This document shows, one piece after another, positions 2,975 through 25,295 of a stretch of DNA of 32,000 bases. Every line of letters begins with the position of its first letter. The stretch's first letter is position 1. The stretch comes from Chlamydiota bacterium (GTDB lineage: Bacteria > Auribacterota > JACPWU01), in assembly GCA_016196885.1 (NCBI GenBank), contig JACPWU010000002.1, forward strand, positions 60,001 to 92,000, written 5' to 3'. A program made the translations under genes and the position numbers. The notes beneath the pieces are model-generated. The model was not told the DNA's origin. It saw only the letters and a program-made list of their open reading frames with translations, and did no database searches.

Positions 2975-3718
2975 ATGAACGAGCTTAAAAAAATTTTTCA
3001 AGAAATTTACAATCGCCTGATTTTGGAAAAACAGTCAGGGAAGAAAACCCTTTTTCTTCCGACCTTTTCAGAAAATTCTAAACTTTTTGCTGAAGGGGAG
3101 AAAGTTGAAAGGGTAACCGCTTCTGGGAAAGTAGAAATGTTGGGACATCGGCCTGTGGTTCAGATTGCATCGTCTTTTCGAGAGTTTCGTGAAAAGGTTT
3201 TGAAATGTGAGCGTTGTGCTTTAGCCGGGGGCAGAACCCAGGTTGTTTTTGGCACGGGCAATGAAAAGGCCTCTTTGCTTTTTGTAGGGGAGGCGCCTGG
3301 ATTTGATGAAGACCGTCTGGGAGAGCCTTTTGTGGGTAAGGCGGGACAGCTTCTGACAAAGATGATTGAGGCGATGGGGCTTAAAAGAGAGGATGTTTAC
3401 ATTGCCAATATTATTAAATGTCGTCCGCCTAACAACCGTACACCAGAGCCTTCAGAAATTGAGCAGTGTTATCCCTATCTTTTGGAACAGATTCGGCGTA
3501 TTTCTCCAAAGGTGATTTGTGCCTTGGGGAATGTCGCTGCGCAGACCCTGCTCGGAACAGAAAAGACGATTACGAGATTAAGGGGCCTTTTTCAGGATTG
3601 GAATGGAATTAAATTAATGCCCACTTTTCATCCCTCTTATCTCCTTAGAAATCCGGAGTACAAACGCGAGGTTTGGAGAGATTTACAGTGGGTGATGAAG
3701 GAGTTAGTAAGCGCGTAA
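2975..3718 (+). CDS. udg: uracil-DNA glycosylase, family 4
   Basis: Motifs GEAPGFDED, FVGKAGQLL and HPSYLLRN, plus an N-terminal CERC Cys pair. The track start 2933 is a TTG inside the hairpin/T-run, so ATG 2975 (MNELKK...) is preferred. Confidence 0.9.
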   Translation: MNELKKIFQEIYNRLILEKQSGKKTLFLPTFSENSKLFAEGEKVERVTASGKVEMLGHRPVVQIASSFREFREKVLKCERCALAGGRTQVVFGTGNEKASLLFVGEAPGFDEDRLGEPFVGKAGQLLTKMIEAMGLKREDVYIANIIKCRPPNNRTPEPSEIEQCYPYLLEQIRRISPKVICALGNVAAQTLLGTEKTITRLRGLFQDWNGIKLMPTFHPSYLLRNPEYKREVWRDLQWVMKELVSA

Positions 3719-3810
3719 GTGTCTAAGTGCTTAGGTGCTTAAGTTGAAAAGGAAATAAATTTATTCCTTATTAACTTAAGCACTTAGACACTTATCAACT
3801 TAAGCACTCA
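3716..3810. repeat. word hairpin WH1 (octamer TAAGTGCT-like arms)
   Basis: Left arm TAAGTGTCTAAGTGCTTAGGTGCTTAAGTT and right arm AACTTAAGCACTTAGACACTTATCAACTTAAGCACTCA are complementary, with an 8-nt bulge. The inner part AAGGAAATAAATTTATTCCTT is palindromic. WH1 fills the udg-priA spacer. Confidence 0.85.
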
Positions 3811-3821
3811 CATGTATTCTT

Positions 3822-5819
3822 ATGAACTACGCCCGTCTTTTTTTTGAAGTTCCATTAAAGCAAGGTTTTGATTACCTCATTCCTGAACACTTGCGATCCC
3901 AGGTGGTGGAAGGTTCTCGCGTCTTGGCCCCTTTCGGTCGCGCGAGGAAGTGGGGTTATGTGAAGGAACTTTTAGTCAAGCCGGATGTATCTGAAGTGAA
4001 AGAAATTTTAGAAATTGCAGAAGGCCCTCCCGTTTTTACGCCTGCCCTTTTTCAATTGGCCCAGTGGATGAGCGATTATTACCTTTCTCCTCTGGGCATG
4101 GTTTTGAGAACGATGTTGCCCGGTCCATTTCGAAAATTTCGTTCAGCGACATCGAGAGTGAAGGAGACTCTTTTCGAAGAAGAAAATGAAATGGAGTCCC
4201 CTCATCTCTTGAATGAAGAACAGAAAAAGGCCCAAGGGCTTATTTTTAAAAGATTAGATGAAGCCATTTTTTCCGTGGTTCTCATTCATGGTGTGACGGG
4301 CAGTGGAAAAACGGAGCTCTATCTTTCGAGTATTGAAAAAGTCTTGGCCCAAGGAAAAGATGTGATTGTGCTGGTGCCTGAAATTTCTTTGACGCCACAA
4401 ACAGTAGAGCGGGTAAAAAATCGCTTTGGTAAAATTGTGGCCTTGATGCACAGCCGCATGAGCGAGGGGGAGCGCGTTAAGGAATGGGAGAGAATTCAAA
4501 GGGGTGAGGCCCGCATTGGGGTAGGGCCTCGTTCTGCGGTGTTTGCGCCTTTTCGGAATTTAGGTCTGATCATTGTGGATGAAGAGCATGAGCGTACCTA
4601 TAAACAAGAAGAAATGCCGCGTTATCAGGGTCGGGATGTCGCGATCATGCGGGCCAAGTTCGAAAGGGCCGTGGTGCTTTTGGGATCGGCGACTCCGGCT
4701 TTGGAGTCCTATTTTAACGCAGAACAGGGAAAATACGATCTTGTGACTCTTTTGAAGCGCGTGATGAACCGGCCCATGCCGGAGGTGCGAGTTGTGGACA
4801 TGCGCAAAGAATCAGAAGCTTATGGACGACTTATTTCTTTTTCCAAAACGTTAAGTGATGAGATCAATGAACGGCTGAAGCGTCGGGAGCAAGTGATTCT
4901 ATTTTTAAATCGTCGCGGCTATGCCCCCATGGTTTTATGTCCCAAATGTGGTCATGTCATTATTTGCGTGGAGTGCGATCAGGCAATGACCTATCATCGG
5001 AACAGAGAATACATGCTTTGCCATCTATGTGAATCTCAAATTCCCATTCCTCAAAAGTGTCCGAAATGCGAGCATCCTAGGCTTCATCGCTTGGGGGTGG
5101 GAACGCAGCGCATTGAAACCCATTTGGAAAAAATTTTGCCTCATGCGACGCTTCGCCGCATGGATACGGACTCGACACGGACTAAAGATGCGCATGAAAA
5201 AATTCTACAGTCTTTTCGATCAGGGGAGGTTCAAATCCTGGTGGGAACCCAGATGATTGCGAAGGGGCTAGATTTCCCAAATGTCACTTTGGTGGGGGTG
5301 ATGAGTGCAGATGTGGCCATGAGTCTTCCGGATTTCAGAATGGGCGAGCATACGTTTCAGTTGTTAACCCAGGTGGCAGGCCGCTCAGGAAGGGGAGACA
5401 AAAAGGGGGTGGTGTTGATTCAGACGCTCACGCCCTTTCATCCTGTGATTCGAGCGGCGATGGCGCAAGATTATTTACAATTTTATAAAAGCGAATTGGT
5501 TTATCGCAAACAGTTGGTCTATCCTCCTTTTTCGCGCATTGTCTCCATGGAATTTGAAGGCAAGCCTGAGCCCAAGGTCATTCAGGTGGCGAAAGAAATG
5601 AGCGTCTTAGTCAAAAAACATCTTCCCTCCTCAACTCGCGTTTTCGGTCCTCATCAAGCGCCCATTTCCAAGATCAAAGGAAAATTCCGCTGGCAAATCA
5701 TTCTTTTTTATCCGCGTGGCCAATCCATTCATGAACCTTTGAGACGGGTTCTGGATGATTTTAATCAGGATAGATTAGTGAAGGTGATGATCGACGTGGA
5801 TCCGGTGAGTTTGATTTAG
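3822..5819 (+). CDS. priA: primosomal protein N' (replication restart helicase PriA)
   Basis: Walker A GVTGSGKTE, DEEH box, Cys-rich zinc region CPKCGHVIICVECDQ...CHLC...CPKCE, 665 aa. Confidence 0.95.
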   Translation: MNYARLFFEVPLKQGFDYLIPEHLRSQVVEGSRVLAPFGRARKWGYVKELLVKPDVSEVKEILEIAEGPPVFTPALFQLAQWMSDYYLSPLGMVLRTMLPGPFRKFRSATSRVKETLFEEENEMESPHLLNEEQKKAQGLIFKRLDEAIFSVVLIHGVTGSGKTELYLSSIEKVLAQGKDVIVLVPEISLTPQTVERVKNRFGKIVALMHSRMSEGERVKEWERIQRGEARIGVGPRSAVFAPFRNLGLIIVDEEHERTYKQEEMPRYQGRDVAIMRAKFERAVVLLGSATPALESYFNAEQGKYDLVTLLKRVMNRPMPEVRVVDMRKESEAYGRLISFSKTLSDEINERLKRREQVILFLNRRGYAPMVLCPKCGHVIICVECDQAMTYHRNREYMLCHLCESQIPIPQKCPKCEHPRLHRLGVGTQRIETHLEKILPHATLRRMDTDSTRTKDAHEKILQSFRSGEVQILVGTQMIAKGLDFPNVTLVGVMSADVAMSLPDFRMGEHTFQLLTQVAGRSGRGDKKGVVLIQTLTPFHPVIRAAMAQDYLQFYKSELVYRKQLVYPPFSRIVSMEFEGKPEPKVIQVAKEMSVLVKKHLPSSTRVFGPHQAPISKIKGKFRWQIILFYPRGQSIHEPLRRVLDDFNQDRLVKVMIDVDPVSLI

Positions 5820-5839
5820 ATTTTTATCCCATTGTGAGT

Positions 5840-6022
5840 CCTGCCCCTCCTCATCCAGCAAAGGAGGTTTTTCTGCCAGTGGCAGAAAAAAGCCGACTGC
5901 GGTAGTAAATGTTCTTTTTCCTCTGTCCCCATCGATGGCATCGGCTTCGTTAATGGTTTTTTGTTTAAGTCTTATGTCTCAGCCTGCTGGCACTCGATGG
6001 GGGACCCCCAGTCGGGTCACCC
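5840..6022 (+). repeat. terminal-box intergenic element, copy 2 (183 bp)
   Basis: It carries the same 5' box (5840-5853) and 3' box (5983-6022, 34/40 identical, including TGGGGGACCCCCAGTCGGGTCACCC) as copy 1. The interior is unrelated but hairpin-rich (TTCTGCCAgTGGCAGAA at 5871-5887). Confidence 0.75.
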
Positions 6023-6076
6023 ACAATGTGATAAAAAAGGGGTGGTGTGGTAAAAAAAATCATCTCAAAATTAATA

Positions 6077-6097
6077 ATCATACTATGATTGTATGAT
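6077..6097 (+). promoter_or_regulatory. palindromic operator-like site upstream of vapB
   Basis: ATCATAcTATGAT is a perfect 6+1+6 palindrome at 6077-6089, with a further TATGAT half-site at 6092-6097. It lies 25-45 nt upstream of the vapB start, which is typical geometry for antitoxin autoregulation. Confidence 0.3.
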
Positions 6098-6120
6098 AAA
6101 TAATGACGTATGAGAGGTGA

Positions 6121-6321
6121 ATGATGAAGATTACAACATATATTGATGGAGATCTCTTGAAGCGGGCTTTAAAGGAAACAGGATCTCATTCTCAGCGTGA
6201 GGTGATTGAGACAGGTCTCAGAAATCTCTTAGCTGATTTTAAAAGAAAGCGTTTTGTGAAGGATTTTAATAACCTGCGCCTCAATCTTTCTCTGGAAACC
6301 CTTAAAAAAGAGCGTTCATGA
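6121..6321 (+). CDS. vapB: VapB-type (ribbon-helix-helix/DUF2191-like) type II antitoxin
   Basis: MKITTYIDGDLLKRALKETGSHSQREVIETGLRNLL matches the familiar VapB pattern (T.dID.eLl..A...tg...krevv..aLr.l). 66 aa. The true start may be ATG 6124. Confidence 0.7.
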   Translation: MMKITTYIDGDLLKRALKETGSHSQREVIETGLRNLLADFKRKRFVKDFNNLRLNLSLETLKKERS

Positions 6322-6418
6322 CAAAGCTATCTTTCTTCATGCAGACATCGATTTTGACCGAATTGCTAAAATTTGCTCTCCACAGGTAGAGAGCTGTGTC
6401 AAAGAAACACGAGAGTAA
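6320..6418 (+). pseudogene. vapC (PIN) toxin remnant, last ~32 codons only
   Basis: The frame starting at 6320 reads DKAIFLHADIDFDRIAKICSPQVESCVKETRE*, a typical PIN C-terminal end (T.D.DF.rI). It is out of frame with the ATG (6318) that overlaps the vapB stop. The rest of the toxin is missing. Confidence 0.5.
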
Positions 6419-6432
6419 TAGGTTGAGTAAAT

Positions 6433-7827
6433 TTATTTCTGATACGCCTTCTGAACCCTCTGTGAGACGTCTTTGTAGGCGATGTCGACTTCGAAGATTT
6501 TTTTGTATTCCATGACGGCTTTGGGGATTTGATTCATGGCTTCGTAGACGAGGCCTAGATGGTAGAGGACGTCTTTTTTGAAGGCGTCCATGTCTGTGAG
6601 TTCTTCGGAAACTTTTAACAGTTGTTTTTCGGCCAGGTCATAAAATTTTTTCTCAAGGAAGCACAGACCCAGATAATAAAGGGCTTTGAGCCTTTTCTGA
6701 GGATCCTTCGCAGCTTGCTGAAATTCCTGGATGGCATGATCGAACTGCCCTGCTCCATAGTAAAGACTCCCCAGTTCGTAACGGTAAGGCAGTTGGTTAG
6801 GGTAGCGTTCGACCCGCTTTTTGCATTCTAAAAGGGCCATTTCACTTTTTTGCTTTTCGAGTTCTTGAATTTGTTGGGTGAGGGACGCATCCGTTGATTT
6901 TTTCGCGAATTCATTGCGGAGTCTAAAAAGTTTTTCTTCTGTTTTTCTGAGTGTCAAAATCGAGACTTGTTGAGCAAATCCGCCATCTGAAGGAAGAAGC
7001 TTGGCCAATTTTTCATAAGTGGCGATGGCGTGATCGTATTCTTTCCCTTGTTCATAGAACTTGGCCAATTCGCGTAATAAAGAAGTGTTATCCGGTTGAT
7101 TCTGCAATTTTTTCTGAAGATCAGCCACCAAGAGTGTCAAATCCTCTTCGCTTTTCACAACCCGGCCCTGGGTTTCCAGAAGGTTTGCCTCTTTCTCATC
7201 CCTGATTTTGTTCCGATAAGTCGAGGTGTCCGACCATTGTCCCTGTTGAATGGTGCGCATGGCCTCAATGTCCTTGAATCCTTTGGCGGCCACTGGATCG
7301 GATGAATTTTTCTTGAGCGCTTCTTGAAAATATTTTTTGGACTTTTCAAAATTTCCTTCCTTAAGATGGAGCTGAGCCAGTTGGTTTAAGACAGAGGTGT
7401 CTTGGGGGCAGAGTTTTCTCAAAATTTCAAAGGTGTCTTGCGCCGTTTGCGTCCAGCCTAAGAGAAGGGCGGTGAGGGCCAGTTTTTTTAAGGCATAGAT
7501 GTTTGTCGGATCAATTTTCAAAATAAGTTCCAGTGTTTGGGTTATGGCCAAATCTCTTTTTCTCATTTCTTGAATAAAAAGAAGACCCCATAAGGGAAGG
7601 GTAAAAATCCATTGAAAAACTTTTTTTGGGAGGAGAAATTTTCCGCTTTCCGCTTTTTGAAGCTGAAGCGTTCTAAGAAGAGCCCTCGCCTTGTGAAAAT
7701 CAGGGTAAGAGAGGAGAAGATTCTTGAGCAGCGTGGAGGCATATTTGAAATGGCCCATGTTGTAGGCCTCTTTCGCCTTCTCATAGAAATCAGTCGCTCT
7801 TTGAGATATTTCGTGCTGAGATCCCAT
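6433..7827 (-). CDS. TPR-repeat protein with one N-proximal hydrophobic segment
   Basis: 464 aa with repeated A..Y/F..A...P helical-pair motifs throughout, and a hydrophobic stretch VFQWIFTLPLWGLLFI. Confidence 0.75.
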   Translation of the reverse strand: MGSQHEISQRATDFYEKAKEAYNMGHFKYASTLLKNLLLSYPDFHKARALLRTLQLQKAESGKFLLPKKVFQWIFTLPLWGLLFIQEMRKRDLAITQTLELILKIDPTNIYALKKLALTALLLGWTQTAQDTFEILRKLCPQDTSVLNQLAQLHLKEGNFEKSKKYFQEALKKNSSDPVAAKGFKDIEAMRTIQQGQWSDTSTYRNKIRDEKEANLLETQGRVVKSEEDLTLLVADLQKKLQNQPDNTSLLRELAKFYEQGKEYDHAIATYEKLAKLLPSDGGFAQQVSILTLRKTEEKLFRLRNEFAKKSTDASLTQQIQELEKQKSEMALLECKKRVERYPNQLPYRYELGSLYYGAGQFDHAIQEFQQAAKDPQKRLKALYYLGLCFLEKKFYDLAEKQLLKVSEELTDMDAFKKDVLYHLGLVYEAMNQIPKAVMEYKKIFEVDIAYKDVSQRVQKAYQK

Positions 7828-7918
7828 TCCCTATCCTTTGCGATAAGTTTGTGTCAATGAATATTTTCTCTAAATTCTAAAAGACGAGTCTAGAGAAGGT
7901 ATGATATCATAAAGCCCT

Positions 7919-8464
7919 ATGATTCGAGAAATTCGTTTATACGGGGATCCTGTTTTGAGGCGCAAGGCTGAAGAGGTGAAGGCCTTTGATGCGCGGCTCA
8001 AGGCCCTCGTCCAGGATATGTTTGAGACCATGGAGGATGCGGGTGGAGTCGGGCTTGCGGCTCCACAGATTGGGATTTCCCAAAGGATTTTTGTGATTGA
8101 TTTAAAGGGTCCCGCGACGCGTTTAGGGGTGATCAATCCTCATCTAAAAATATCGGGTCCTTTGATCAAGGGATCAGAGGGGTGCCTTTCCATCCCTGGA
8201 ATTTCTGCTCAGGTGGCCAGGCCAGCGCATGTGCATCTTCAGGCGATGGATGAGGAGGGAAGGCCTTTTGAACTCGAGGCCGAGGGGCTCATGAGCCGGG
8301 CCCTGCAGCATGAATTGGATCATTTGGACGGCATTTTCTTTCTGGACCGCCTCAGTTTAACGCAGAGATCTCTCCTTTTAACAAAGGTCAAGCGGCTGGA
8401 GAAAGAGGTCGCTGCGGGTCACAAGGTGGAGAGGCCCCGGGAAAACGCCGAGAGTGTTCTTTAA
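7919..8464 (+). CDS. def: peptide deformylase
   Basis: Motifs GVGLAAPQIG, EGCLSIPG and HELDHLDG. Confidence 0.95.
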   Translation: MIREIRLYGDPVLRRKAEEVKAFDARLKALVQDMFETMEDAGGVGLAAPQIGISQRIFVIDLKGPATRLGVINPHLKISGPLIKGSEGCLSIPGISAQVARPAHVHLQAMDEEGRPFELEAEGLMSRALQHELDHLDGIFFLDRLSLTQRSLLLTKVKRLEKEVAAGHKVERPRENAESVL

Positions 8465-10191: not shown

Positions 10192-10195
10192 AACA

Positions 10196-10293
10196 AATTT
10201 CCAATAACAAATGTCAAATTAATTTCCAATTCTCCAATGACCCATTGGGGATTGGAGCATGGGTCATTCATTTGATATTTGTTATTGGAAATT
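10196..10293. repeat. word hairpin WH2 (CCAAT/ATTGG words, nested)
   Basis: The outer arms AAATTTCCAATAACAAATGTCAAAT / ATTTGATATTTGTTATTGGAAATT have 1 mismatch. The inner stem is AATGACCCAT / ATGGGTCATT. WH2 fills the spacer between fmt and the rsmB remnant. Confidence 0.8.
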
Positions 10294-10303
10294 GGTTATT
10301 TCT

Positions 10304-10844
10304 ATGAGTCCTCGTGACGCTGCCTTTCACGCCCTTCAAAATTGGGAAAAGAAATCTTTGCCTATCTCTTACACCCTCGAGCCCTATTTTTTAAAGGCGA
10401 GTGAAGAAGATTTTTGAGAACATGAGGCGGTTGGGAATCAAAATGATTCTACCGATGGTGGCGGATGCGACGAAGATCAAAAATCTTTTTAAAATTCCTT
10501 TTGACCGCATTTTGGTAGATGTCCCGTGTTCTAATTGCGGAGTTTTTGCTAAAAGGGTCGAGGCCCGCTGACGGTTTTCTATGAAAGAAGTCAAGCGCTT
10601 GGCTGCGTTACAGATTCAAATTTTAAAAGAGGCGCTTCGGCTTCTAAAGTCAGGGGGGATTTTGGTGTATTCTACGTGCAGCATTGATCCTATCGAAAAT
10701 GAGGAAGTGGTTCGAGCTTCCTTGAAAGACCAAGCTCAATTCCAGCTCACCGATGAAAAAACAATATTTCAAACTCTTCAGCAGGCGGGGGGCTATTGGG
10801 CAAAGATAAGACTTTCCCTTGACAAGGGCGCTTTCCTAATTTAG
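10304..10844 (+). pseudogene. rsmB: decayed 16S rRNA m5C967 methyltransferase gene (rsmB/sun)
   Basis: 10304-10417 encodes MSPRDAAFHALQNWEKK...EEDF*, an RsmB-like N-terminus. 10422-10841, in another frame, encodes RRLGIK...FDRILVDVPCSNCGVFAKRVEAR*RFSMKEVKRLAALQIQILKEALRLLKSGGILVYSTCSI. This is the RsmB catalytic C-terminus, with TGA (10569-10571) at the conserved Trp position. About 250 codons, including SAM-binding motif I, are absent. The gene sits in the expected position after fmt. Confidence 0.75.
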
Positions 10845-10860
10845 ATTGAGTCTCAATTAA
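10819..10860 (+). promoter_or_regulatory. promoter (TTGACA-17-TAGATT) overlapped by a palindromic operator-like site
   Basis: TTGACA at 10819-10824, a 17-nt spacer, then TAGATT at 10842-10847. A perfect 6+1+6 palindrome ATTGAGtCTCAAT lies at 10845-10857, within TTAGATTGAGTCTCAATTAA. The SD AGGAG is at 10865-10869 and the ATG at 10876. Confidence 0.5.
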
Positions 10861-10875
10861 ACCCAGGAGTGTCAG

Positions 10876-12282: not shown

Positions 12283-12321
12283 AAACTAATTTGGACGAAA
12301 TTATTTTTAGAGACTTTTCCT

Positions 12322-14698: not shown

Positions 14699-14730
14699 GG
14701 ACGATGGACGATGGAAGATGGACGAAGATG
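14699..14730 (+). repeat. tandem heptamer array WH3 (GGACGAT GGACGAT GGAAGAT GGACGAA GATG)
   Basis: Read directly. It occupies essentially the whole permease-ATPase spacer and contains four ATGs (14704, 14711, 14718, 14728). There is no local complementary arm. Confidence 0.8.
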
Positions 14731-15801
14731 AGCAGCCTTATTCAAGCAAAAAATTTAACGCGTCGTTATAGTGACCATGTCATGGCCCTCGATCATGTAG
14801 ATTTAACAGTTGAACGAGGTGAATGGCTTGCCATGATGGGGCCTTCTGGGTCTGGGAAGACGACCTTGCTGAATTTATTGGGTTGTTTGGATCGTCCCAC
14901 GGAGGGAGAAATTTTCTTTGAAAATCGTTTGATCAGTACTTTCAGTGCTCAAGAGTTGAATCGCTTTCGCCGCGAAAATGTAGGGATCGTTTTTCAGCAA
15001 TTTCATTTGATTGGTTATTTGACGGCCCTGGAAAATGTAATGTTGGCTCAGTATTATCACAGCATGGTCGATCGTGAGGAGGCAAAGCGTGCCCTAGAGG
15101 ATGTCGGATTGGGTGAGCGGATTCATCATTATCCGTCACAACTTTCGGGAGGGGAGCAACAGCGGGTTTGCGTGGCCCGGGCCTTGATTAATCAGCCTAA
15201 ATTGATTTTGGCAGATGAACCTACAGGAAATTTGGACGAGAAAAGCGAAGAGACGGTGCTGGATCTTTTTCGGCGTTTGCACGCAAAGGGACACACTATT
15301 TTAATGGTCACGCATGACGTGACCGTTGGAAAAATGGCGGATCGTCAACTGCAATTGGAACACGGAAGAATAGCAGGATCTTATTTAAGTCCCCTTCAAG
15401 CAGAGGAGGATATTGAGAATTTTCTCAAGCGCTTATGGGAATTACGTGAAGAGGGTAAGCTTTCGTATGACTATTTGCAGAAAAATAATTTTTTGGATCA
15501 TGCGGGTGTTTTGAAATACATGCAGGCCAAAGAACTTTTGGAAGTGAAAGATCGAAAAATCTATTTTACTTCAGCAGGTGAGCTTCGTATGAGAGATATC
15601 ATTCGTCGCCACCGGCTGGCCGAAATACTTTTTTCTAAAGCTTTACACATGGATAAAGAAGAGTCGGCTGTTGAGGCCTGTCAATTTGAGCACATGCTCA
15701 ATCCCGATATCACAGAAAGAATCTGTACTTTTTTTCATCATCCAAAGAAATGTCCTCATGGGAAGGAAATTCCTGGAGGGAAATGCTGTGAAAGACCGTA
15801 G
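14728..15801 (+). CDS. ABC transporter ATP-binding protein (MacB/LolD type) with C-terminal DtxR/IdeR-like metal-dependent regulator domain
   Basis: The NBD has GPSGSGKTT, LSGGEQQR, LILADEPT and VTHD. The C-terminal ~135 aa read ENFLKRLWELREEG...RRHRLAEILF...EACQFEH...CPHGKEIP, colinear with DtxR EMYLRTIYELEEEG...RKHRLAERLL...EACRWEH...CPHGNPIP. The start is ATG 14728 (MSSLIQAKNL) or 14704. Confidence 0.85.
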   Translation: MSSLIQAKNLTRRYSDHVMALDHVDLTVERGEWLAMMGPSGSGKTTLLNLLGCLDRPTEGEIFFENRLISTFSAQELNRFRRENVGIVFQQFHLIGYLTALENVMLAQYYHSMVDREEAKRALEDVGLGERIHHYPSQLSGGEQQRVCVARALINQPKLILADEPTGNLDEKSEETVLDLFRRLHAKGHTILMVTHDVTVGKMADRQLQLEHGRIAGSYLSPLQAEEDIENFLKRLWELREEGKLSYDYLQKNNFLDHAGVLKYMQAKELLEVKDRKIYFTSAGELRMRDIIRRHRLAEILFSKALHMDKEESAVEACQFEHMLNPDITERICTFFHHPKKCPHGKEIPGGKCCERP

Positions 15802-15881
15802 CTCGTCTTTCGTCGTTCGTCTTCCGTTTATAAGCAAGAAGTTAGTAACGGACGACGAACAACTAACGAAGAACGACGAAC
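15802..15881. repeat. word hairpin WH4 (heptamers TTCGTCN / GACGAAC)
   Basis: The left arm CTCGTCTTTCGTCGTTCGTCTTCCGTT (15802-15828) is imperfectly complementary to the right arm AACGGACGACGAACAACTAACGAAGAACGACGAAC (15847-15881). WH4 starts immediately after the ATPase stop. Confidence 0.8.
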
Positions 15882-15911
15882 AAAAATTGTTCAAAAGAAA
15901 AACAGGTTGTT

Positions 15912-17245: not shown

Positions 17246-17278
17246 AACTTAACTCATTCTTTAGCAAGGAGTTAAGTT
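17246..17278 (+). other. perfect 10-bp hairpin downstream of hemL (possible terminator; no T-run)
   Basis: AACTTAACTC (17246-17255) / GAGTTAAGTT (17269-17278) with a 13-nt loop. Confidence 0.3.
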
Positions 17279-17360
17279 CTGAAATATTAAATTATTCTTT
17301 TAATCTTTCTGAAATGAACAGTGTCTATATATATGGGTGGGGAGATAGGACGAGGAAGCC

Positions 17361-17504: not shown

Positions 17505-17784
17505 TATCAAATCAGACTTTCTGCCCAATTTAACCTTACCTAGAGATCCAGGACTTTCTTCAGAACTCAGTTCATCCCAGTTAAACTCAGATTTTGCAAT
17601 AGACGCGTGGACTCAAGAGCAAGAGCTTGAGCCAGACAGGCCTTTGCAGTCCCTGTGGGATTGGCCTGAAGAAAACAAACAAATCAGGCAAACTTGTGCC
17701 AGTGGCACAAGGCAAACTGACGCGTTAGTAAATGAGTTCCTCTTTATAGCATGCAAAAATTTGCCTGTCGAGTATTTCTGAAGG

Positions 17785-18618
17785 TCAAGTGCCTTCGCAT
17801 ACGGTAACGCCGGCTGCTTTGAGAGCTTCTATCTTAGAAACTGCTGTTCCTGAACCTCCTGAAACAATAGCTCCGGCATGGCCCATTCTTTTGCCGGAGG
17901 GGGCGGTTGTGCCGCTGATAAAGGCGACCACGGGTTTAGTGAATTTTTCCCGAATGTATTCAGCGGCAATTTCTTCTTGGCTTCCTCCAATTTCTCCGAT
18001 GAGAATGACCGCTTCTGTTTGAGGATCTTTTTCGAAGAGTTCGAGAAGTTCAATGTAGCCGGTTCCAATAATAGGATCACCGCCAATTCCAATACAAGTA
18101 GATTGGCCCAAGCCTAAAGAGGTCAATTGCCAAACGGCTTCGTAAGTCAATGTTCCACTTCTTGAAATAACACCGATAGAGCCGGGTTTATGAATGTAGC
18201 CGGGCATAATGCCTATTTTACATTCACCCGGGGTGATAATGCCTGGGCAATTGGGCCCGATCAATGTAGTGTCTGTTCCCTGTAAAACCCTTTTGACTTT
18301 GGCCATGTCGAGCGTAGGGATCCCTTCAGTAATACAGGCAATCAGTTTGATGCCAGCCGCATGGGCTTCTAAAATGGCATCCGCGGCAAAAGGGGCTGGA
18401 ACATAAATCACAGACGCATTGGCCTGGGTTTTCTGAACAGCTTCCTGAACCGTGTCAAAAATGGGAATCTTTTCGAAATTTGTTCCGCCTTTGCCAGGGG
18501 TAACACCTGCTACCATTTTTGTCCCGTATTCCACCATTTGACGGGTATGGAAAGAGCCGGCTGAACCGGTGATGCCTTGGCAAATGACGCGGGTATTTTT
18601 GTCGACCAGAATAGACAT
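17785..18618 (-). CDS. sucD: succinyl-CoA ligase [ADP-forming] alpha subunit
   Basis: Motifs [20 protein letters not shown] and [10 protein letters not shown] (phosphohistidine loop). At 277 aa it ends about 20 codons earlier than typical homologues (see findings). Confidence 0.95.
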
Positions 18619-18635
18619 AATAGACTCTTTCTCTT

Positions 18636-18747
18636 AAAATTCGAAATACGAAACACAGAGTAAAAGCAGGCACGAAATACCAAGCACTAATTTTGAATTT
18701 GGGTATTAGAATTTGTTTCGAATTTTGTGCTTCGTTCTTCGAATTTT
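18636..18747. repeat. word hairpin WH5 (CTTCGNN / NNCGAAA heptamers), fills the sucC-sucD spacer
   Basis: AAAATTCGAAATACGAAACAC (18636-18656) pairs with GTGCTTCGTTCTTCGAATTTT (18727-18747) with 2 mismatches in 21. The interior has additional imperfect complementarity. Confidence 0.8.
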
Positions 18748-18752
18748 ATTCG

Positions 18753-19910: not shown

Positions 19911-19922
19911 ATTGTGAGCGCT

Positions 19923-19951
19923 AATTTACCTGAAAAGGTTTGGATTTGCAA
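19923..19951 (-). promoter_or_regulatory. candidate sucCD promoter (TTGCAA-17-TAAATT) only 12 nt from the ATG
   Basis: On the minus strand TTGCAA is at 19951-19946 and TAAATT at 19928-19923. No Shine-Dalgarno lies between the -10 box and ATG 19910. Confidence 0.4.
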
Positions 19952-19983
19952 ATGTTGAGTGAGGAGTGCTTTAGACGGATATT

Positions 19984-20067
19984 CTATTTAAAAAGGTCTG
20001 AGTGCGTTCCCGTTCTTTCAAAGATAATTTGGTTTTCAGTTTGTCGTGTGTAGACAGGAATTAACAT
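19984..20067 (-). pseudogene. RelE/YafQ-family toxin remnant (27-codon mini-ORF)
   Basis: ATG at 20067-20065 overlaps the dinJ-like stop (TGATG). It encodes MLIPVYTRQTENQIIFERTGTHSDLFK*. The tail ...IIFERTGTHSDLF is the characteristic C-terminal strand of RelE/YafQ toxins. About 60 N-terminal codons are missing. Confidence 0.5.
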
Positions 20068-20327
20068 CAGATGCCCAATCGTTTGAACATATCATTTGTA
20101 TCACGACAGACAATTAAATCTCTCTTTGCATCTGTGTTTGTAAAAGTTTTGAGCGTATTCCTGTTGGGAATACTGACATCGAAGGGAAGTCCTCTTCTGA
20201 GGGTGATTTGTTTGTAAAATATTGTGACGGCTTGGGAGACTGAAAGTCCAAGCCGGTGCAGTAATCCTTCTGCCTCATTCTTAAGATGAGGCTCTATTCG
20301 CGCATGAATCGTAGCCGTTTTATTCAT
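20067..20327 (-). CDS. RelB/DinJ-family type II antitoxin
   Basis: MNKTATIHARIEPHLKNEAEGLLHRLGLSVSQAVTIFYKQITLRRGLPFDV follows the DinJ pattern. The RBS AAGGAG lies 8 nt upstream of ATG 20327. The longer track ORF start at 20441 is rejected. Confidence 0.8.
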   Translation of the reverse strand: MNKTATIHARIEPHLKNEAEGLLHRLGLSVSQAVTIFYKQITLRRGLPFDVSIPNRNTLKTFTNTDAKRDLIVCRDTNDMFKRLGI

Positions 20328-20428
20328 AGCATATCTCCTTGTTTGCCTTAGGGGAGATGTAGCACAACCAGTACACATATGCAAGTGTTTTTGTGCTTTT
20401 CCATTGTTGAGACAGGAACCCGAGAATT

Positions 20429-21562
20429 TTATCCTCCCCACATGCGTCGAAAGAATCCGGCTTTTTTCACTTCCTCTTTTGCTTCTATATTGACACGGGC
20501 CAGGGTTTCTTCATCCAGGGTCGCAATATATTGGGCAATGATTTGGCCTTGGGTGATGGGGGCTTCGAGTGAAGGGGGGATGAAAATGGAAAGTTTGACT
20601 TGGGAGGCCTTGTCTTTGGGGACCATGAAGAAAAGATTGTCACTTGCGATACCCTGATCAGAAGAAGGTTTGCCATGATGAATCGGAATGTCGAATACTT
20701 GGCCTTTACAGGGAACAACCACATTGGTGAAGCGGTTGAAGCCATCATTCAGAAGTTGTCTCGTATATTCGGAACGTTCTTTGTTGGTGAGGGCTCCCAA
20801 GAGAACAGAAATCAATCTCATGTTTCCCTGTTTGGCTACACCCACCAAGCAATAGAGGGCCTCGTCGGTATAACCTGTTTTAAGTCCGAGCATGCCAGGA
20901 TATTTTCCAATCAATTTATTCGTGTTGATGAAACGGTATTTTCCCTGCCGAATAAAGATTTGTTTTTGCGATGAATATTGAAAAACTTCTGGGTAATCTC
21001 TCCATATGGCCAATGTCAGGCGTACCAGATCACAGGCTGTTGTCGTATCTTTGGGGGTATCTAGAGCTGGGGGAAGTCCATGGGGGCTTCTGAAAACCGT
21101 TTGTTTGAGACCTAAGGTCTTGGCTTTTTCATTCATGAGCTGGACAAAATTTTCCTGAGAGCCAGAGATCATTTCGGCCAGGGCAGCCGCTGCGTCATTG
21201 GCGCTTCCGACAGCGGTTGCTTTCACAAGGTCACGGGCAGAAATTTTTTCACCCTGCCACATTTTGGCTTCGGATCCGCGAATGGCTGCAATTCTGAGCG
21301 GAACGGTGTAAAGGCTGTCCCAGTGAATTTTGCCCTGATGGACGGCTTCGAAGGTGAGGTAAAGGGTCATGATTTTGGTGAGGCTAGCCGGGGCATGCGG
21401 CGCGTCTTTATTTTTTTGGGTTAGAATGTCGCCTGTGTCTGCATTTACGACCAGATAGGAACTGACAGGAATGTCTGTGCCTTTAGGTTTTAACTCTTTT
21501 GCTTGCAAGGAAAAGGGAATGATGCTCAGTAAAAAAAAGATCGAAAGTGTTTGTTTTTTCAT
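20429..21562 (-). CDS. dacA: D-alanyl-D-alanine carboxypeptidase (PBP5/6-like, peptidase S11) with signal peptide
   Basis: SxxK (ASLTKIM), SxN (GSANDAA), KTG (LKTGYT), and a C-terminal PBP5_C-like beta domain. Confidence 0.9.
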   Translation of the reverse strand: MKKQTLSIFFLLSIIPFSLQAKELKPKGTDIPVSSYLVVNADTGDILTQKNKDAPHAPASLTKIMTLYLTFEAVHQGKIHWDSLYTVPLRIAAIRGSEAKMWQGEKISARDLVKATAVGSANDAAAALAEMISGSQENFVQLMNEKAKTLGLKQTVFRSPHGLPPALDTPKDTTTACDLVRLTLAIWRDYPEVFQYSSQKQIFIRQGKYRFINTNKLIGKYPGMLGLKTGYTDEALYCLVGVAKQGNMRLISVLLGALTNKERSEYTRQLLNDGFNRFTNVVVPCKGQVFDIPIHHGKPSSDQGIASDNLFFMVPKDKASQVKLSIFIPPSLEAPITQGQIIAQYIATLDEETLARVNIEAKEEVKKAGFFRRMWGG

Positions 21563-21643
21563 AAATGCACAGTCCTATTTTTGAGGACAGATTCTAACAT
21601 TTCTTAAAAAAAAGGAAATGATTTTGGGTTTATTTTTTTTATA

Positions 21644-21781
21644 GGCATATGCACTTGACTTAAAGATGTCGTCCATTTGTAGTCGCCCCATTTATGGGGC
21701 CGTGCCCCTTGCATGGATTGCCCGATAAATCGGGCGACTACGCTTGACGGATCAAGAATACTTGAGCCAAGTGCATATGCC
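21644..21781 (+). repeat. nested palindromic structured element, copy 2
   Basis: Perfect 14-bp terminal inverted repeat GGCATATGCACTTG / CAAGTGCATATGCC. The 42-nt core GGATTGCCCGATAAATCGGGCGACTACGCTTGACGGATCAAG is identical to copy 1, in the same orientation. Confidence 0.85.
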
Positions 21782-21808
21782 TTTTTTTTATTTTTTAAGG
21801 GGTTCATA

Positions 21809-21817
21809 TGATATAAT
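21809..21817 (+). promoter_or_regulatory. extended -10 box TGaTATAAT, 6 nt upstream of ATG 21824
   Basis: Read directly. No SD lies between the box and the ATG, which implies a leaderless or very short-leader mRNA. Confidence 0.35.
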
Positions 21818-21823
21818 GAAAGA

Positions 21824-22219
21824 ATGAGAATGAAGCTGGTTCCTGTTTTGATTCTCGTAGTGGCGTTAATAGGCTCTTGTAGTCTTTTCTCGGGCCGCTG
21901 TTGTGCTGCCCAACAAGAGAAGGGCAATCATCACTCCTGTCATTCTTCTCCTGGTTCTGAATCTTCTGGAAAATCTAATTTGAGCCCTTGTTGCTGTACC
22001 CTTTTTTCTGATCTTCCCAAAATTCCAGAACAAATATTAAGCTCTTTTCATTCAGGGTTTCTTTCCTTTTTTCAAGGAGAAGTTTTGGTTGAGAGCTTCC
22101 AAGGTTTTAAGAATATTTTCTGGGATTCTTTTTCAGATCCTCCACCCTGGGGTGATCTTCATTTCTACGATCTTGTTTTTTCCTCTCAAGCGCCTCCACA
22201 AGCAGCGTTCAGCGTATAG
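21824..22219 (+). CDS. Cys/His-rich small exported protein (lipobox-like LIGSC), paralogue of 28652..29047
   Basis: Signal-like N-terminus, then CC...NHHSCH...CCC, and a Phe/Ser-rich C-terminal half ending ...APP... The order of motifs matches the ORF at 28652. Confidence 0.55.
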   Translation: MRMKLVPVLILVVALIGSCSLFSGRCCAAQQEKGNHHSCHSSPGSESSGKSNLSPCCCTLFSDLPKIPEQILSSFHSGFLSFFQGEVLVESFQGFKNIFWDSFSDPPPWGDLHFYDLVFSSQAPPQAAFSV

Positions 22220-22286
22220 CGTACAGCGGACAGTAAGAAGGGGTACTTGTTTTTCCTGTCCGCTGAACGCTGTACGCTGTGCGCTG
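22203..22286. repeat. word hairpin WH6 (heptamer CAGCGTN)
   Basis: The left arm is CAGCGTTCAGCGTATAGCGTACAGCGGACAG and the right arm CTGTCCGCTGAACGCTGTACGCTGTGCGCTG. The core 10-bp stem is perfect, and TTCTTTTT follows. The left arm contains the stop codon of the upstream ORF. Confidence 0.85.
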
Positions 22287-22313
22287 TGAGTTCTTTTTAT
22301 GGAGGTATTCTCA

Positions 22314-23579
22314 ATGAAATTTATATTCGTCGTTTTTTTATCATCTCTCTATTTTTCATGCGCCTTTGCCGAAGAGAGAGAGAGGCTTTCTTTACCCGCT
22401 CTTATCGAGGAAGTTCTTCAAAAGAATCCTGACTTGAAGATGGCCGAGAAAAAATGGGAGGCTGCCCATGCCCAAATTCTTCAGGCGGGTGTTCTGGAAG
22501 ATCCGATGTTGGGAGTCGAAGTTGAAGGAATTCCCACCGATACGGTAGATGTGGGACGTTACAACGATATTGAATGGAGTTTCTCCCAGAATTTTCCTTT
22601 TCCTGGGAAGCTTTCACTCAAGAAAAAAATTGCTTGGGAAGAAGCAGAGAAGGCGCATCTTGAATATTTTGAAAAGAAAAATCAAATTGTTGCCGATGTC
22701 AAAATGGCATATGTGGATTATGATTTGATGTTTAGAACGATTCAAATCTTGGAAGACGATGAGCGGATTTTGAGTCAATTTGAAGAGAGTGCCCGAAGTA
22801 AGTATGAAGTAGGCAAAGTCTCTCAACAGGATGTTCTCAAGGCACAGGTTGAGTGGACGAAGATTAAAAATCAAATTCTGATTAAGAATCAAGAAAAAGA
22901 GACCTTGGCTGCAAGAATCAATATGTTACTCTCCCAGTCGCCTGGAGAATTATTGGGAGATCCGGAACCTTTGTCTGAAGAGACTTCAGAGTTGGATCTG
23001 GATTCACTCCTTTCAAGCGCCTTGGAGGGTCGTCCAGAACTGAAGATGAAAGAAGCTGAAATAAAAGGGATGGAATGGGCGCTTCGGTTGGCCCGGCGGC
23101 AGTATGAACCTGATTTTTTTACAAAACTTGAGAGCCGACAATTTCAAGGAGCAGGATTGGAAGAGTATGACGTCATGCTTGGGATGAGCATTCCGTGGCT
23201 GTGGACGCGTTCTCGCGTGGAGGGTGCAGTCCAAGAGGCCCGGGCCAATTTAGAGGCTGCACGAAATGAATACGAAGCAAAAAAATGGGCGATTTTATTT
23301 GAGGTTAAAGAATCGTGGGTGAAGGTTCATACCTCTGTCAGTCTGGTTAATCTTTATCGGTCCAATATTCTTCCGAAGGCGGATCAAATGATCAAAGTTT
23401 CTCAAATAAATTACGAGACGGATAAAATTGATTTTTTAATGCTTTTGGACAGCCTTAGAACTTTGGTGGCATTTCAATTGGAATATCGAGAGGCGATTGC
23501 GGATTATCATAAAAATTCTGCGCAGTTGGAGAGGAGAGTGGGAAAGCAGAATACAGAATTCAGAATTCAGAATAAATAA
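22314..23579 (+). CDS. cusC: TolC-family outer membrane efflux protein (CusC-like)
   Basis: Signal peptide MKFIFVVFLSSLYFSCAFA and two-repeat OEP architecture. GGAGG lies 8 nt upstream of ATG 22314, so that start is preferred over 22299. The gene is first of a C-B-A order. Confidence 0.85.
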   Translation: MKFIFVVFLSSLYFSCAFAEERERLSLPALIEEVLQKNPDLKMAEKKWEAAHAQILQAGVLEDPMLGVEVEGIPTDTVDVGRYNDIEWSFSQNFPFPGKLSLKKKIAWEEAEKAHLEYFEKKNQIVADVKMAYVDYDLMFRTIQILEDDERILSQFEESARSKYEVGKVSQQDVLKAQVEWTKIKNQILIKNQEKETLAARINMLLSQSPGELLGDPEPLSEETSELDLDSLLSSALEGRPELKMKEAEIKGMEWALRLARRQYEPDFFTKLESRQFQGAGLEEYDVMLGMSIPWLWTRSRVEGAVQEARANLEAARNEYEAKKWAILFEVKESWVKVHTSVSLVNLYRSNILPKADQMIKVSQINYETDKIDFLMLLDSLRTLVAFQLEYREAIADYHKNSAQLERRVGKQNTEFRIQNK

Positions 23580-23630
23580 GGAGGGGGTTGTTTTTATTCT
23601 GAATTCTGGATTCCGACTTCTGAATTCTAA
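23547..23630. repeat. word hairpin WH7 (heptamer CAGAATN)
   Basis: CAGAATA CAGAATT CAGAATT CAGAATA forms the left arm. A perfect 14-bp stem pairs CAGAATTCAGAATA (23561-23574) with TATTCTGAATTCTG (23595-23608). The left arm encodes the last residues of CusC (QNTEFRIQNK). Confidence 0.85.
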
Positions 23631-23642
23631 AAAAGGATCTTT

Positions 23643-25196
23643 ATGAAAACACGTATCTTTATCATATTGATAGTAGTTTTAGGACTCACGTCTTTTCTTT
23701 TGATTTATCGCCATTCTGTTTCTGGTAGGAAGCAGGATTCTTCTGAGAAAGTAGAGAGTGCGACGTATTACTGTCCCATGCATCCGACCTACACGAGTGA
23801 TCGGCCGGGGAACTGTCCGATTTGCAACATGACATTGGAGAAGAGAGAAGAAGTTCAGCCGTCTCCCTCGCAGTCTTTGAATTCAAAAGATATTTGCTTC
23901 ATGCACAATTGTCCCATGATGAAAGAGGGGGAAACATGCCCCATGATGGTGGTGGCGAAAGTTGGGGAGAAGGTTACCTGTCCTGTGTGTGGGTCTCATG
24001 TTGCACAGGAATCAAAGCAGGGCCCAGAAAAGAAAATTCTTTATTGGACGGATCCGATGATGCCGGATTTTCGTTCGGATAAACCCGGCAAGTCGCCTAT
24101 GGGCATGGACTGGGTCCCTGTTTATGAAGAAGAGGCAGTTGCTGGAGGGGATCATGCGGCTTCTCCATCAGGATATACCCCCATTCTGGTAAGTCCTCAA
24201 AAGATACAGTTGATTGGCGTTAAGACTGTTCTTGCCAAGAAGCAAAATTTAACAAAGCAAATTCGTACGGTAGGGCGAGTGACAGTGGATGAAACCCGCA
24301 TCGTTCGTGTTCATCCCAAAGTAGAGGGTTGGGTTGAGGAGATTTTTGCGAAGTATGAAGGGGATCGGGTGAATAAAGGTCAGCCGCTTTTTTCATTTTA
24401 CAGCCCTGATTTTGTCTCTGCCCAGGAAGAATATCTTTCGGCTTTGAAAATGCAAAGTGGGCTTCCCTCGGATGTGTCTAGCGATGCCCGAAGAGATGCC
24501 CAGGCCAATGTGGATTCTGCACAGAAGCGTCTTCAATGGTGGGATGTGACGGATGAACAAATTGAGGAGTTGAGAAAGCGTCAAGCCCCTCAAAAGACGC
24601 TTGTTTTGACGTCTCCTATCGATGGAGTCATTCTCAAGAAAAATGTTTTTGCGGGCCAGTTTATGGAAAGAGGTGCAGGCTTTTTTGAATTGGCGGATCT
24701 TTCGAGCGTGTGGGTGGATGCAGATTTATATGAGTATGATTTGCCTTGGGTCAAGGTGGGAGAAGAGGGGCGTGTCACATTGCCCAATGATTCCAAGAAT
24801 GAATGGAGCGGAAAGGTGATTTATGTGGCCCCTCTCTTAAAGGCGGAAACGCGAACCGCCGTGGCTCGTTTGGAGTTGTCGAATGCGGACAACGTTCTAA
24901 AGCCCGAGATGTACGTGACAGTCGAAATCTCTATTGATTTGGGAGAGCGGCTTGTTGTACCTGCGGAGGCTCTCTTGGATACGGGAGAGCGTAAAATTGT
25001 TTTTGTCAGCAAGGAGAATGGAATTTTTGAACCTCGAGAGGTGGTGATGGGGGCAAAGACGAATAAATCCGTCGAGATTGAAAAAGGGATTGATGAAGGG
25101 GAAGTCGTGGTGATCAATGGAAATTTTCTCATTGATTCTGAGAGCAGGTTGAAAGCGGCGATGGAGGGGATGGGAAGTGGAGAACATCAACATTGA
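23643..25196 (+). CDS. cusB: RND efflux periplasmic adaptor (CusB-like) with N-terminal HMBD and Met/Cys-rich extension
   Basis: YYCPMHPTYTSDRPGNCPICNMTLE (heavy-metal-binding-domain motif), CFMHNCPMMKEGETCPMM...CPVCG, the CusB-type LYWTDPMMPDFRSDKPGKSPMGMDWVPV, and then HlyD-like barrel-sandwich and beta-barrel regions. Confidence 0.9.
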   Translation: MKTRIFIILIVVLGLTSFLLIYRHSVSGRKQDSSEKVESATYYCPMHPTYTSDRPGNCPICNMTLEKREEVQPSPSQSLNSKDICFMHNCPMMKEGETCPMMVVAKVGEKVTCPVCGSHVAQESKQGPEKKILYWTDPMMPDFRSDKPGKSPMGMDWVPVYEEEAVAGGDHAASPSGYTPILVSPQKIQLIGVKTVLAKKQNLTKQIRTVGRVTVDETRIVRVHPKVEGWVEEIFAKYEGDRVNKGQPLFSFYSPDFVSAQEEYLSALKMQSGLPSDVSSDARRDAQANVDSAQKRLQWWDVTDEQIEELRKRQAPQKTLVLTSPIDGVILKKNVFAGQFMERGAGFFELADLSSVWVDADLYEYDLPWVKVGEEGRVTLPNDSKNEWSGKVIYVAPLLKAETRTAVARLELSNADNVLKPEMYVTVEISIDLGERLVVPAEALLDTGERKIVFVSKENGIFEPREVVMGAKTNKSVEIEKGIDEGEVVVINGNFLIDSESRLKAAMEGMGSGEHQH

Positions 25197-25295
25197 CTTC
25201 GCGTACTTCGTACATCGTACGTCGTACCTAGAACATCGAACATCGTTTCTTGCGTAGATTGTTTTACGAAGTCCGATGTCCGAAGTACGAAGTAC
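25197..25295. repeat. word hairpin WH8 (heptamers CTTCGTA / CGAAGTA)
   Basis: The left arm CTTCGCGTACTTCGTACATCGTACGTCGTACC (25197-25228) is imperfectly complementary to the right arm TACGAAGTCCGATGTCCGAAGTACGAAGTAC (25265-25295). Confidence 0.85.

Follow-up and report, generated by a model that had tools for sequence, protein, structure and literature searches.

A 32,000-nt stretch of the genome of a Chlamydiota bacterium (GenBank assembly GCA_016196885.1, contig JACPWU010000002.1, positions 60,001 to 92,000; hereafter the window) carries at eight of its gene junctions arrays of degenerate 7-8-nt words, most of them paired in inverted orientation so that they fold into long hairpins. These word hairpins (WH1 to WH8), which had been picked out by an earlier sequence-only reading, are a real and statistically robust feature. 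Their architecture appears to be that of the stem of the intervening sequences (IVS) of 23S rRNA and of the brackets around genes of the PF05635 family, and the heptamer hairpins known in cyanobacteria as STRRs (short tandemly repeated repetitive sequences) appear to be the same thing. With about even confidence, we read the hairpins of the window as hairpin insertion elements of an IVS/STRR type in gene-less form, probably substrates of RNase III, which have been further shaped by slippage of whole units. The link is that in five phyla PF05635 genes occupy word-hairpin loops, that words travel with the gene lineage, and that gene-less copies stand within operons.

Arrays and hairpins in the window

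Arrays were counted with Tandem Repeats Finder (TRF) at a minimum of 2.5 copies, against a background of 100 dinucleotide-preserving shuffles of the window. Eleven of the 13 arrays have a period of 7, one has a period of 8 and one a period of 6, whereas the shuffles hold a mean of 0.26 period-7 arrays and a maximum of three of periods 7 and 8 together. Strict inverted pairs number four in the window and zero in the shuffles. Nine of 12 arrays are wholly intergenic and two lie in 3' coding tails; the sole array that is neither non-coding nor in last codons is a weak one in hemL.

At seven of the eight loci the sequence folds into one long hairpin, with a stem of 27-44 pairs, a loop of 8-40 nt and arms of 2.7-6.4 units; the z-scores range from -3.2 to -10.3. 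The eighth, WH3, is a single arm without structure, and one further single array had been overlooked when eight loci were named. Each hairpin starts at the upstream stop codon or a few bases off and ends 10-30 nt before the next start codon, which leaves the ribosome-binding region free. The loci are as follows, with energies and z-scores of the folds.

WH1, 3712..3812, + strand: hairpin running from the stop of UDG to a point 10 nt short of priA; -41.8 kcal/mol, z -7.3; octamer arms TAAGTGCT x4 (3716-3747) and ACTTAAGC x4.4 (3774-3808).
WH2, 10192..10297, + strand: 44-pair hairpin 1 nt past the fmt stop; -46.4 kcal/mol, z -8.0; outer arms of period 7 (NNCAAAT x4), inner part a nested CCAATGACC/GGTCATT hairpin.
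WH3, 14699..14729, + strand: single arm GGACGAT x4 (TRF 14699-14725, x3.9); unstructured, z +0.7.
WH4, 15800..15884, + strand: hairpin directly 3' of the ABC ATPase stop; -29.2 kcal/mol, z -3.2; arms TTCGTCN x3 (TRF 15803-15821) and ACGAACG x4.9 (TRF 15848-15881).
WH5, 18634..18749, - strand: hairpin filling the sucC-sucD spacer; -29.6 kcal/mol, z -4.8; outer arms of TTCGAAA/TACGAAA words.
WH6, 22201..22289, + strand: hairpin ending about 10-25 nt before the TolC start; -59.8 kcal/mol, z -10.3; arms CAGCGTN x4.4 (TRF 22203-22233) and CTGNACG x4.6 (TRF 22256-22287).
WH7, 23545..23632, + strand: hairpin; -32.6 kcal/mol, z -6.6; arms CAGAATN x4 (TRF 23547-23574) and ATTCTGA x4.7 (TRF 23596-23628).
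WH8, 25195..25298, + strand: hairpin running from the stop of CusB to a point 10 nt short of CusA (ATG 25309); -34.6 kcal/mol, z -3.8; arms CGTACNT x4 plus 2 unpaired units (TRF 25202-25246) and TACGAAG x4.4 (TRF 25265-25295).
Extra single arm, 2814..2847, + strand: CTTGCCC x4.9 in the UDP-glucose dehydrogenase/UDG spacer (TRF).

At least five word groups are present within 32 kb, with a CGAA/TTCG core shared by four loci, as had been stated, and CAGNNTN by two. Some of the words first given need correction: the CCAAT word of WH2 is by direct reading the periodic NNCAAAT, and WH5, described as a CTTCGNN array, stands as a hairpin with a weak periodicity of 2-3 units. Placement between genes holds for most loci, although in WH6 and WH7 the left arm falls within the 3' coding tail of the gene upstream and is translated. 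That of WH6 overlaps the last codons of a small open reading frame (ORF; 21824-22219), and in that of WH7 the CAGAATN units encode about the last ten residues of TolC with the tail KQNTEFRIQNK. The two arms of a hairpin are similar in unit number and mirror each other weakly in unit variants. In WH1 the left arm is longer than the right by a clean one-unit indel, which shows that arrays turn over by whole units. Variation within arrays shows no significant preference for one phase of the unit (P = 0.10); the degenerate 'N' position of the sequence-only reading and a unit model of six templated positions and one random position are both set aside on this result.

WH3 occupies a 37-nt spacer between the stop codon of an FtsX-like permease gene (14689) and the probable ABC ATPase start (ATG 14727), and no partner arm was found nearby. 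Its GGACGAT array (14699-14729) and the left arm of WH4 (15802-15829, TTCGTCN), 1.1 kb downstream, are roughly complementary. The two flank the 1.1-kb ABC ATPase gene in a way perhaps reminiscent of the layout around PF05635 genes, with a gene as the loop.

Chance or an artefact of a metagenome-assembled genome (MAG) has next to no probability as the source of these structures. The window does come from a short-read MAG and differs from a GenBank contig by a 148-nt indel; against an artefact stand the 11 period-7 arrays for 0.26 per shuffle, z-scores down to -10, comparable hairpins seen both in finished cyanobacterial plasmids and in MAGs other than this one, and an independent Logan assembly (L051), which has the same sequence over 3.4 kb and so excludes an origin of the word hairpins in assembly. 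The GenBank contig, JACOUD010000070.1 of the groundwater MAG 'Chlamydiae bacterium' GCA_016178005.1, encodes a TolC-like protein 100% identical to that of the window. The 148 nt are absent from the window at about position 17793 (L050 5333-5477) and take in the 3' end of sucD, which has 277 residues in the window against 288; the difference is either a strain variant, an assembly variant or an edit of the window.

Orthologous junctions and PF05635 genes

Of two metagenome scans for further orthologous loci, the first yielded none and the second two. In a second Chlamydiota MAG (L052), whose TolC is 56% identical to that of the window, the counterparts of the TolC/CusB and CusB/CusA junctions also carry word hairpins and sucD/sucC carries an array, all with words different from those of the window. 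Structure kept while words change is what the sequence-only reading had anticipated for orthologous spacers. The spacer lengths compare as follows, negative values being those of overlapping genes.

sucC/sucD spacer: 134 nt in the window, 103 nt in L052; -4, 16 and 28 nt in L061-L063.
CusB/CusA spacer: 112 nt in the window, 167 nt in L052; overlap of 11-17 nt in four other loci.
TolC/CusB spacer: 63 nt in the window, 107 nt in L052; 3, 30 and -4 nt in three loci; with hairpins, 56 nt (L056) and 89 nt (L054/L055).

Relatives with tight or overlapping junctions hold almost no heptamer arrays in about 50 kb, which indicates that the long hairpin spacers are derived, by insertion or expansion. In an alignment of eleven relatives, the TolC tail varies in length and sequence beyond the conserved AELERxVG motif. 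The words found in it are related between genomes (CAGAATT in the window, AAAATTC in L052, CCAAATN in L054 and, as a lone arm, AAAAATC in L058), so that an array can evidently persist and drift. Similar hairpins, again directly past stop codons, occur in loci of Omnitrophota, Elusimicrobia and Planctomycetota. One of them (L001 6924-7056, Omnitrophota) is directly followed by a near-consensus promoter-like TTGACA-N17-TATACT, which puts this hairpin at a transcription-unit boundary. In two Omnitrophota MAGs the coding region of CusB contains arrays between heavy-metal-binding motifs (AGCACAC x5.6, L001 10097-10135; AGCGAGC x4.9, L002 10112-10145), from which it follows that arrays are tolerable in protein linkers.

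PF05635, also called 23S_rRNA_IVP, S23p or 'four helix bundle protein' (IVP below), is related to bAvd, the accessory protein of diversity-generating retroelements. In an Omnitrophota locus (L040), a 125-residue ORF of this family (E 3e-37) is inserted between CusB and CusA, the junction that carries WH8 in the window. It lies exactly between AGTGTCA x4 and TGACACA x3.4, so that the gene makes up the loop of a word hairpin. The protein resembles two solved structures of uncharacterised proteins (five chains each), one of which is XCC0516 of Xanthomonas campestris (PDB 2gsc). By tblastn the family was found in 35 records of 72,556 plasmids, nearly all from heterocystous cyanobacteria, the classical organisms of STRR heptamers.

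A survey of the flanks of 22 IVP genes from Cyanobacteria, Alphaproteobacteria, Bacteroidota, Gemmatimonadota and Omnitrophota shows that all 22 adjoin at least one 7/8-nt array, of about 2.4-15 units. Inverted arrays were called at 13 of the 22 by a strict, uniform automatic test and at most of the rest by eye, against 0 of 613 control ORFs, where the single match was itself an IVP gene. Inverted arrays bracket the gene in the following taxa.

Cyanobacteria: Nostoc, Calothrix, Anabaena, Trichormus, Scytonema, Aulosira, Geminocystis, Picosynechococcus, Leptolyngbya and Stanieria.
Other phyla: Bernardetia (Bacteroidota), Gemmatirosa (Gemmatimonadota), Azospirillum and three Omnitrophota contexts.

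The Azospirillum copy, with the arm words GAGGACG/GTCTTCT, is a genuine IVS, as it lies inside large-subunit rRNA. In the repeat-poor plasmids of Bernardetia and Azospirillum (50 kb each), the IVP flanks supply two of the three period-7 arrays; the Bernardetia control also has TAACTGA x5 (L078 2751-2786).

The word is inherited with the lineage of the element and not taken from the insertion site. An Omnitrophota IVP clade (66-100% identity) has NGTGTCA at CusB/CusA, lepB/pgsA and atpG/atpD alike, a Nostocales clade (the MRQPAKTF clade) has CAGGAGT/CAGAATT words in six plasmids, and the IVPs of L067 and L068, which are visibly similar by eye, both have AAAGCTA in different genera and contexts. 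In the one pair of sites compared, arms and gene also arrive together as an insertion: the nrdB/nrdA spacer of a Calothrix plasmid is empty, about 40 nt long and free of arrays, and that of Nostoc edaphicum is filled with TAGGGAG x8, an IVP gene and TCCCTAC x5. PF05635 genes were seen amid essential or tightly coupled operons (L096 1501-1878; L090 1501-1878; L066, L068, L070, L074), at atpG/atpD, lepB/pgsA, nrdB/nrdA (on the opposite strand), cas6/cas4 (twice) and cas10/cmr3. Contigs with close IVP homologues are mostly very short (0.5-3 kb), as expected if genes and repeat arms are multi-copy and break metagenome assemblies.

Nostoc plasmids also hold gene-less hairpins with the same arms as the IVP-bearing copies and the same inner end, CAGAATAAAT. 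The loops of these hairpins (L087-L089) carry other small structured modules, such as CAGTCGGGGATTCAGACCCGCGACTG and GACCACCAAAT...ATTTGGTGGGGGTC, which may be the small dispersed repeats that Elhai et al. reportedly described in 2008 from inside Nostoc heptamer arrays.

The most direct tie between the window and these elements is WH7, which uses the CAGAATT word of the MRQPAKTF clade. Its left arm agrees with that clade in 27 of 31 positions, the inner end CAGAATAAAT among them, up to the start codon of the cyanobacterial IVP gene, and its right arm matches the outer end of the Nostocales copies at 16 of 16, with the exact 16-mer GACTTCTGAATTCTAA. The alignment score was reached by none of 200 shuffles and by five of 1000 synthetic word hairpins (P = 0.005). 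A BLAST search with WH7 against the same 72,556 plasmids hit 126 places in 43 records, nearly all Nostocales; equivalent searches with WH1, WH4, WH6 and WH8 gave noise only.

Known repeats and the origin of the hairpins

IVS of 23S rRNA, known since about 1990, occur in Coxiella, Leptospira, Salmonella and Alphaproteobacteria with or without an S23p/IVP ORF, the gene-less forms of Salmonella being about 100 nt long. STRRs have served as typing markers since 1990. To our knowledge, neither heptanucleotide repeats nor STRRs nor rRNA IVS have an accepted origin, and we know of no function for PF05635, for which structures have been solved. The Coxiella IVS, a selfish element, has a 28-bp stem with 3-4 GACAGAT repeats before the S23p ORF, the number varying between strains, and RNase III cuts the stem at the first repeat (PMC4990558). 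Such IVS share with the window a long inverted-repeat stem of tandem heptamers (28 bp in Coxiella, or 4 x 7). They differ in their site, helix 25/45 of 23S rRNA, whereas the elements of the window lie in mRNA spacers and gene tails and contain no ORF; excision by RNase III has been published for rRNA IVS only (PMC4990558). The window contains no rRNA and all its loci lie between protein-coding genes, hence they are not helix 25/45 IVS in the strict sense.

Cyanobacterial STRRs resemble the window in their 7-bp tandem units, in their intergenic or intercistronic position and in forming hairpins within operons, as between hupS and hupL and upstream of hoxW (PMC2670836), and the word and arm ends of WH7 are those of a Nostocales family. 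They belong to a different phylum (the window being from a Chlamydiota MAG, with relatives in Omnitrophota and Elusimicrobia) and are described in the searchable literature as few genome-wide words. In Xanthomonas, GGGAATC heptamers, mostly in four units, are intergenic and form 70-75 convergent inverted pairs per genome, with a position conserved between species and a length and sequence that vary (Rehm et al. 2015, PMC4692102). Period, a unit number of about four and inverted pairing are as in the window, and X. campestris encodes the PF05635 protein XCC0516; in contrast, one G-rich word dominates there and has been interpreted as a G-quadruplex (PMC4692102), whereas the window has many words and no G-runs. 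Direct repeats of TAACTGA are known from Beggiatoaceae, Cyanobacteria and Bacteroidetes (MacGregor 2015, PMC4679880). They too are mostly intergenic heptamer arrays, near start codons and patchy across phyla, but consist of a single word and are almost always direct (one inverted case in 170). Heptanucleotide repeats in general are over-represented among long simple repeats of bacterial genomes, being the most abundant class according to PMC4679880, and polymerase slippage has been proposed as their cause (Mrazek et al. 2007, as reported in PMC4679880 and PMC4692102). The contrast drawn by the sequence-only reading between the word hairpins and classical repeats therefore overstated their novelty, because heptanucleotide hairpins were already described in cyanobacteria and Xanthomonas: the hairpins are known as a kind and new for this lineage. 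Their link to rRNA IVS and the PF05635 family is apparently under-appreciated. A limited literature search found no report connecting STRRs with PF05635, nor any general claim that heptamer hairpins enclose IVP genes, the single Coxiella IVS being the only case.

As gene-less insertion elements, the hairpins of the window would belong to a class with stems of about four tandem 7-8-nt words per arm, or about 28-32 bp. The eight loci would have descended by loss of the internal gene or by the spread of gene-less copies. Transcribed within the operon, the stems of 27-44 bp would be cut by RNase III as in rRNA IVS, which would make the insertions tolerable in operons and split the polycistronic RNA at these points, and the arrays would then drift by gain and loss of units and by concerted change. 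Slippage, proposed earlier as the generator of the arrays, does act on them, given the unit indels between arms and the strain-level changes in copy number in the literature, although its part is probably secondary.

Several results weigh against this interpretation. A profile hidden Markov model built from only 12 proteins found neither an IVP gene nor a remnant of one in the window or in about 240 kb of other array-bearing or related-genome loci, and none of the best 120 homologues is labelled Chlamydiae. Homology to the arms of known IVP elements is detectable for WH7 alone of nine loci, with a borderline P of about 0.05 after correction for the nine; as WH7 is the sole direct homology, the other loci rest on shared architecture, unit number, position and derived spacers. 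The related TolC-tail words CAGAATT, AAAATTC and AAAAATC fit long vertical persistence as well as mobility. The IVP survey is dominated by Nostocales, in which heptamer arrays are common anyway, and several of the surveyed loci are orthologous copies and not independent insertions. The order of units is mirrored significantly only in the TolC/CusB hairpin of L052 (P = 0.007; WH6 P = 0.08, the rest not significant), a result that also speaks against recent inverted duplication. The sense strand folds more stably at four loci and the antisense strand at five, without a sense-strand excess of G-U pairs, so that no sign of selection at the RNA level was found, and cleavage of the mRNA hairpins by RNase III would be an extrapolation from rRNA IVS.

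A purely local origin, as in the slippage and inverted duplication of the sequence-only reading, seems rather unlikely to us though it deserves serious weight. Slippage with a preferred 7-nt step would expand seeds at gene ends, template switching at quasi-palindromes would make the inverted partner, and IVP genes would merely land or be tolerated in the loops of such structures without any mobile element. Words that differ between loci and lack common termini are what this would produce, and it would also account for unit-level indels between arms such as that of WH1, for the single-arm states at WH3, 2814-2847 and L058, for a possible seed, CAAATCAAC, in the array-less TolC tail of L059, for the heptamer arrays within the CusB coding linker of L001 and L002, and for a patchy distribution across lineages as reported for such repeats (PMC4679880, PMC4692102). 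It does not explain the array-free empty site of the nrdB/nrdA pair, where the architecture comes with the insertion, the words that track the IVP lineage across unrelated insertion sites, or the arms of WH7, which match the Nostocales element including the phases of their ends. Against it also stand the same architecture around PF05635 genes in five phyla and close relatives that have the same genes and are essentially array-free in about 50 kb.

Selection for RNA structure, the other explanation offered at the outset, is still less probable. Here the hairpins would punctuate operons as U-tract-independent terminators or attenuators, as barriers to 3' exonucleases or as processing sites that set the expression of each cistron, and the repeats would be the way in which stems grow. 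This would agree with the strict placement between stop codon and next ribosome-binding region, with the similar unit numbers of the arms (e.g. 7.9 vs 7.3, 4.3 vs 4.3), with the retention of the TolC/CusB and CusB/CusA hairpins in two genomes at 56% TolC identity, and with the proposal that the hupS-hupL STRR hairpins stabilise transcripts or couple translation (PMC2670836). Against it speak the equal stability of sense and antisense folds, the relatives that run the same operons with overlapping genes, and the harm that a strong terminator between sucC and sucD would do. A stem-plus-U-tract scan that allowed only loops of 3-8 nt called none of the hairpins, several of which lie inside operons, and its matches across the window were no more frequent than in shuffles; canonical terminators are rejected on this basis, in line with the sequence-only view that the hairpins are not simple terminators. 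A role in operon punctuation is possible, and nothing in the present results gives it positive evidence.

The reading of the hairpins as gene-less IVS/STRR-type elements can be widened, more speculatively than the reading itself, to a single pan-bacterial mobile 'intervening-sequence' class of PF05635 genes and heptamer/octamer stems, housed in rRNA helices and operon spacers. The word would be set by the element lineage. Repeated copying of a short template at the two ends of a break, perhaps by a reverse transcriptase with help from the Avd-like protein, might build the arms, and gene-less copies would spread non-autonomously. We regard this wider scheme as doubtful at present. If true, it would bring rRNA IVS, cyanobacterial STRRs, the heptamer pairs of Xanthomonas and the hairpins of the window into one framework and give the IVP family its first function. 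The link between IVP genes and word hairpins, if it holds, by itself turns several unexplained repeat phenomena into one mobile-element problem, and it predicts that many uncultured lineages have RNase III processing sites in their operons. In annotation, hairpins of this sort account for C-terminal tails that vary, for unusually long intercistronic spacers and for breaks in MAG contigs.

Other repeats and genes of the window

The eight loci have architecture and period in common and neither sequence nor termini, just as the sequence-only reading held, and copies of one sequence in the manner of repetitive extragenic palindromes (REP), bacterial interspersed mosaic elements (BIME) or MITEs (miniature transposable elements with inverted repeats) are excluded accordingly. 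REP/BIME, Correia, enterobacterial repetitive intergenic consensus (ERIC) and MITE-like elements are, like the word hairpins, small intergenic palindromic insertions tolerated in operons, and some of them are RNA structures relevant to RNase III or exonucleases; unlike the word hairpins, they are near-identical copies of one sequence with fixed termini and no internal periodicity. Integron attC sites conserve structure and not sequence and are not periodic; they are ruled out here by housekeeping flanking genes in conserved synteny. A known RNA family is not indicated either, as the covariance models of Rfam 15 gave no match anywhere in the window at the gathering threshold. Palindromic cores resembling restriction sites (GAATTC, TTCGAA, CTTAAG, GTAC) were considered as a cause of self-complementarity and rejected, since by eye some words have them and those of WH4, L001 and L002 do not. 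A common loop motif was not found: the loops of WH6 and WH7 are similar (pairwise p = 0.002), which is not significant after 91 comparisons.

The window has conventional dispersed repeats as well, and they look quite unlike the word hairpins. One is a non-periodic, MITE-like palindromic element of about 130 nt present in two copies of 92-94% identity (2469-2602 and 21640-21790), with nested stems GTAGTCGCCCCATTCATGGGGC...ATTGCCCGATAAATCGGGCGACTAC; in L052 the orthologous spacer, between PBP5 and the small ORF, has instead another hairpin, which is very long (-112 kcal/mol). A second repeat (1058-1102 and 5978-6022, 87% identical) contains GGGGGACCCCCAGTCGGGTCACCC, each copy being placed in a long spacer rich in G+C.

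The window codes over 85% of its length, at 45% G+C, for ordinary housekeeping and transport functions, its genes being arranged in long runs of one direction. The runs are the following.

UDP-glucose dehydrogenase, UDG and priA.
def, fmt and a decayed rsmB.
An FTR1/FtsX/ABC iron cluster.
hemL.
sucD-sucC and PBP5.
A TolC-CusB-CusA efflux operon.

Downstream of fmt (10294-10875) lie frame-broken remnants of rsmB (sun), in which the ORF 10581-10844 resembles by eye the C-terminal part of the methyltransferase; the region is probably a pseudogene. A strong non-periodic hairpin (29900-29948; -26 kcal/mol, z -6) fills the 49-nt spacer before a second outer-membrane efflux gene.

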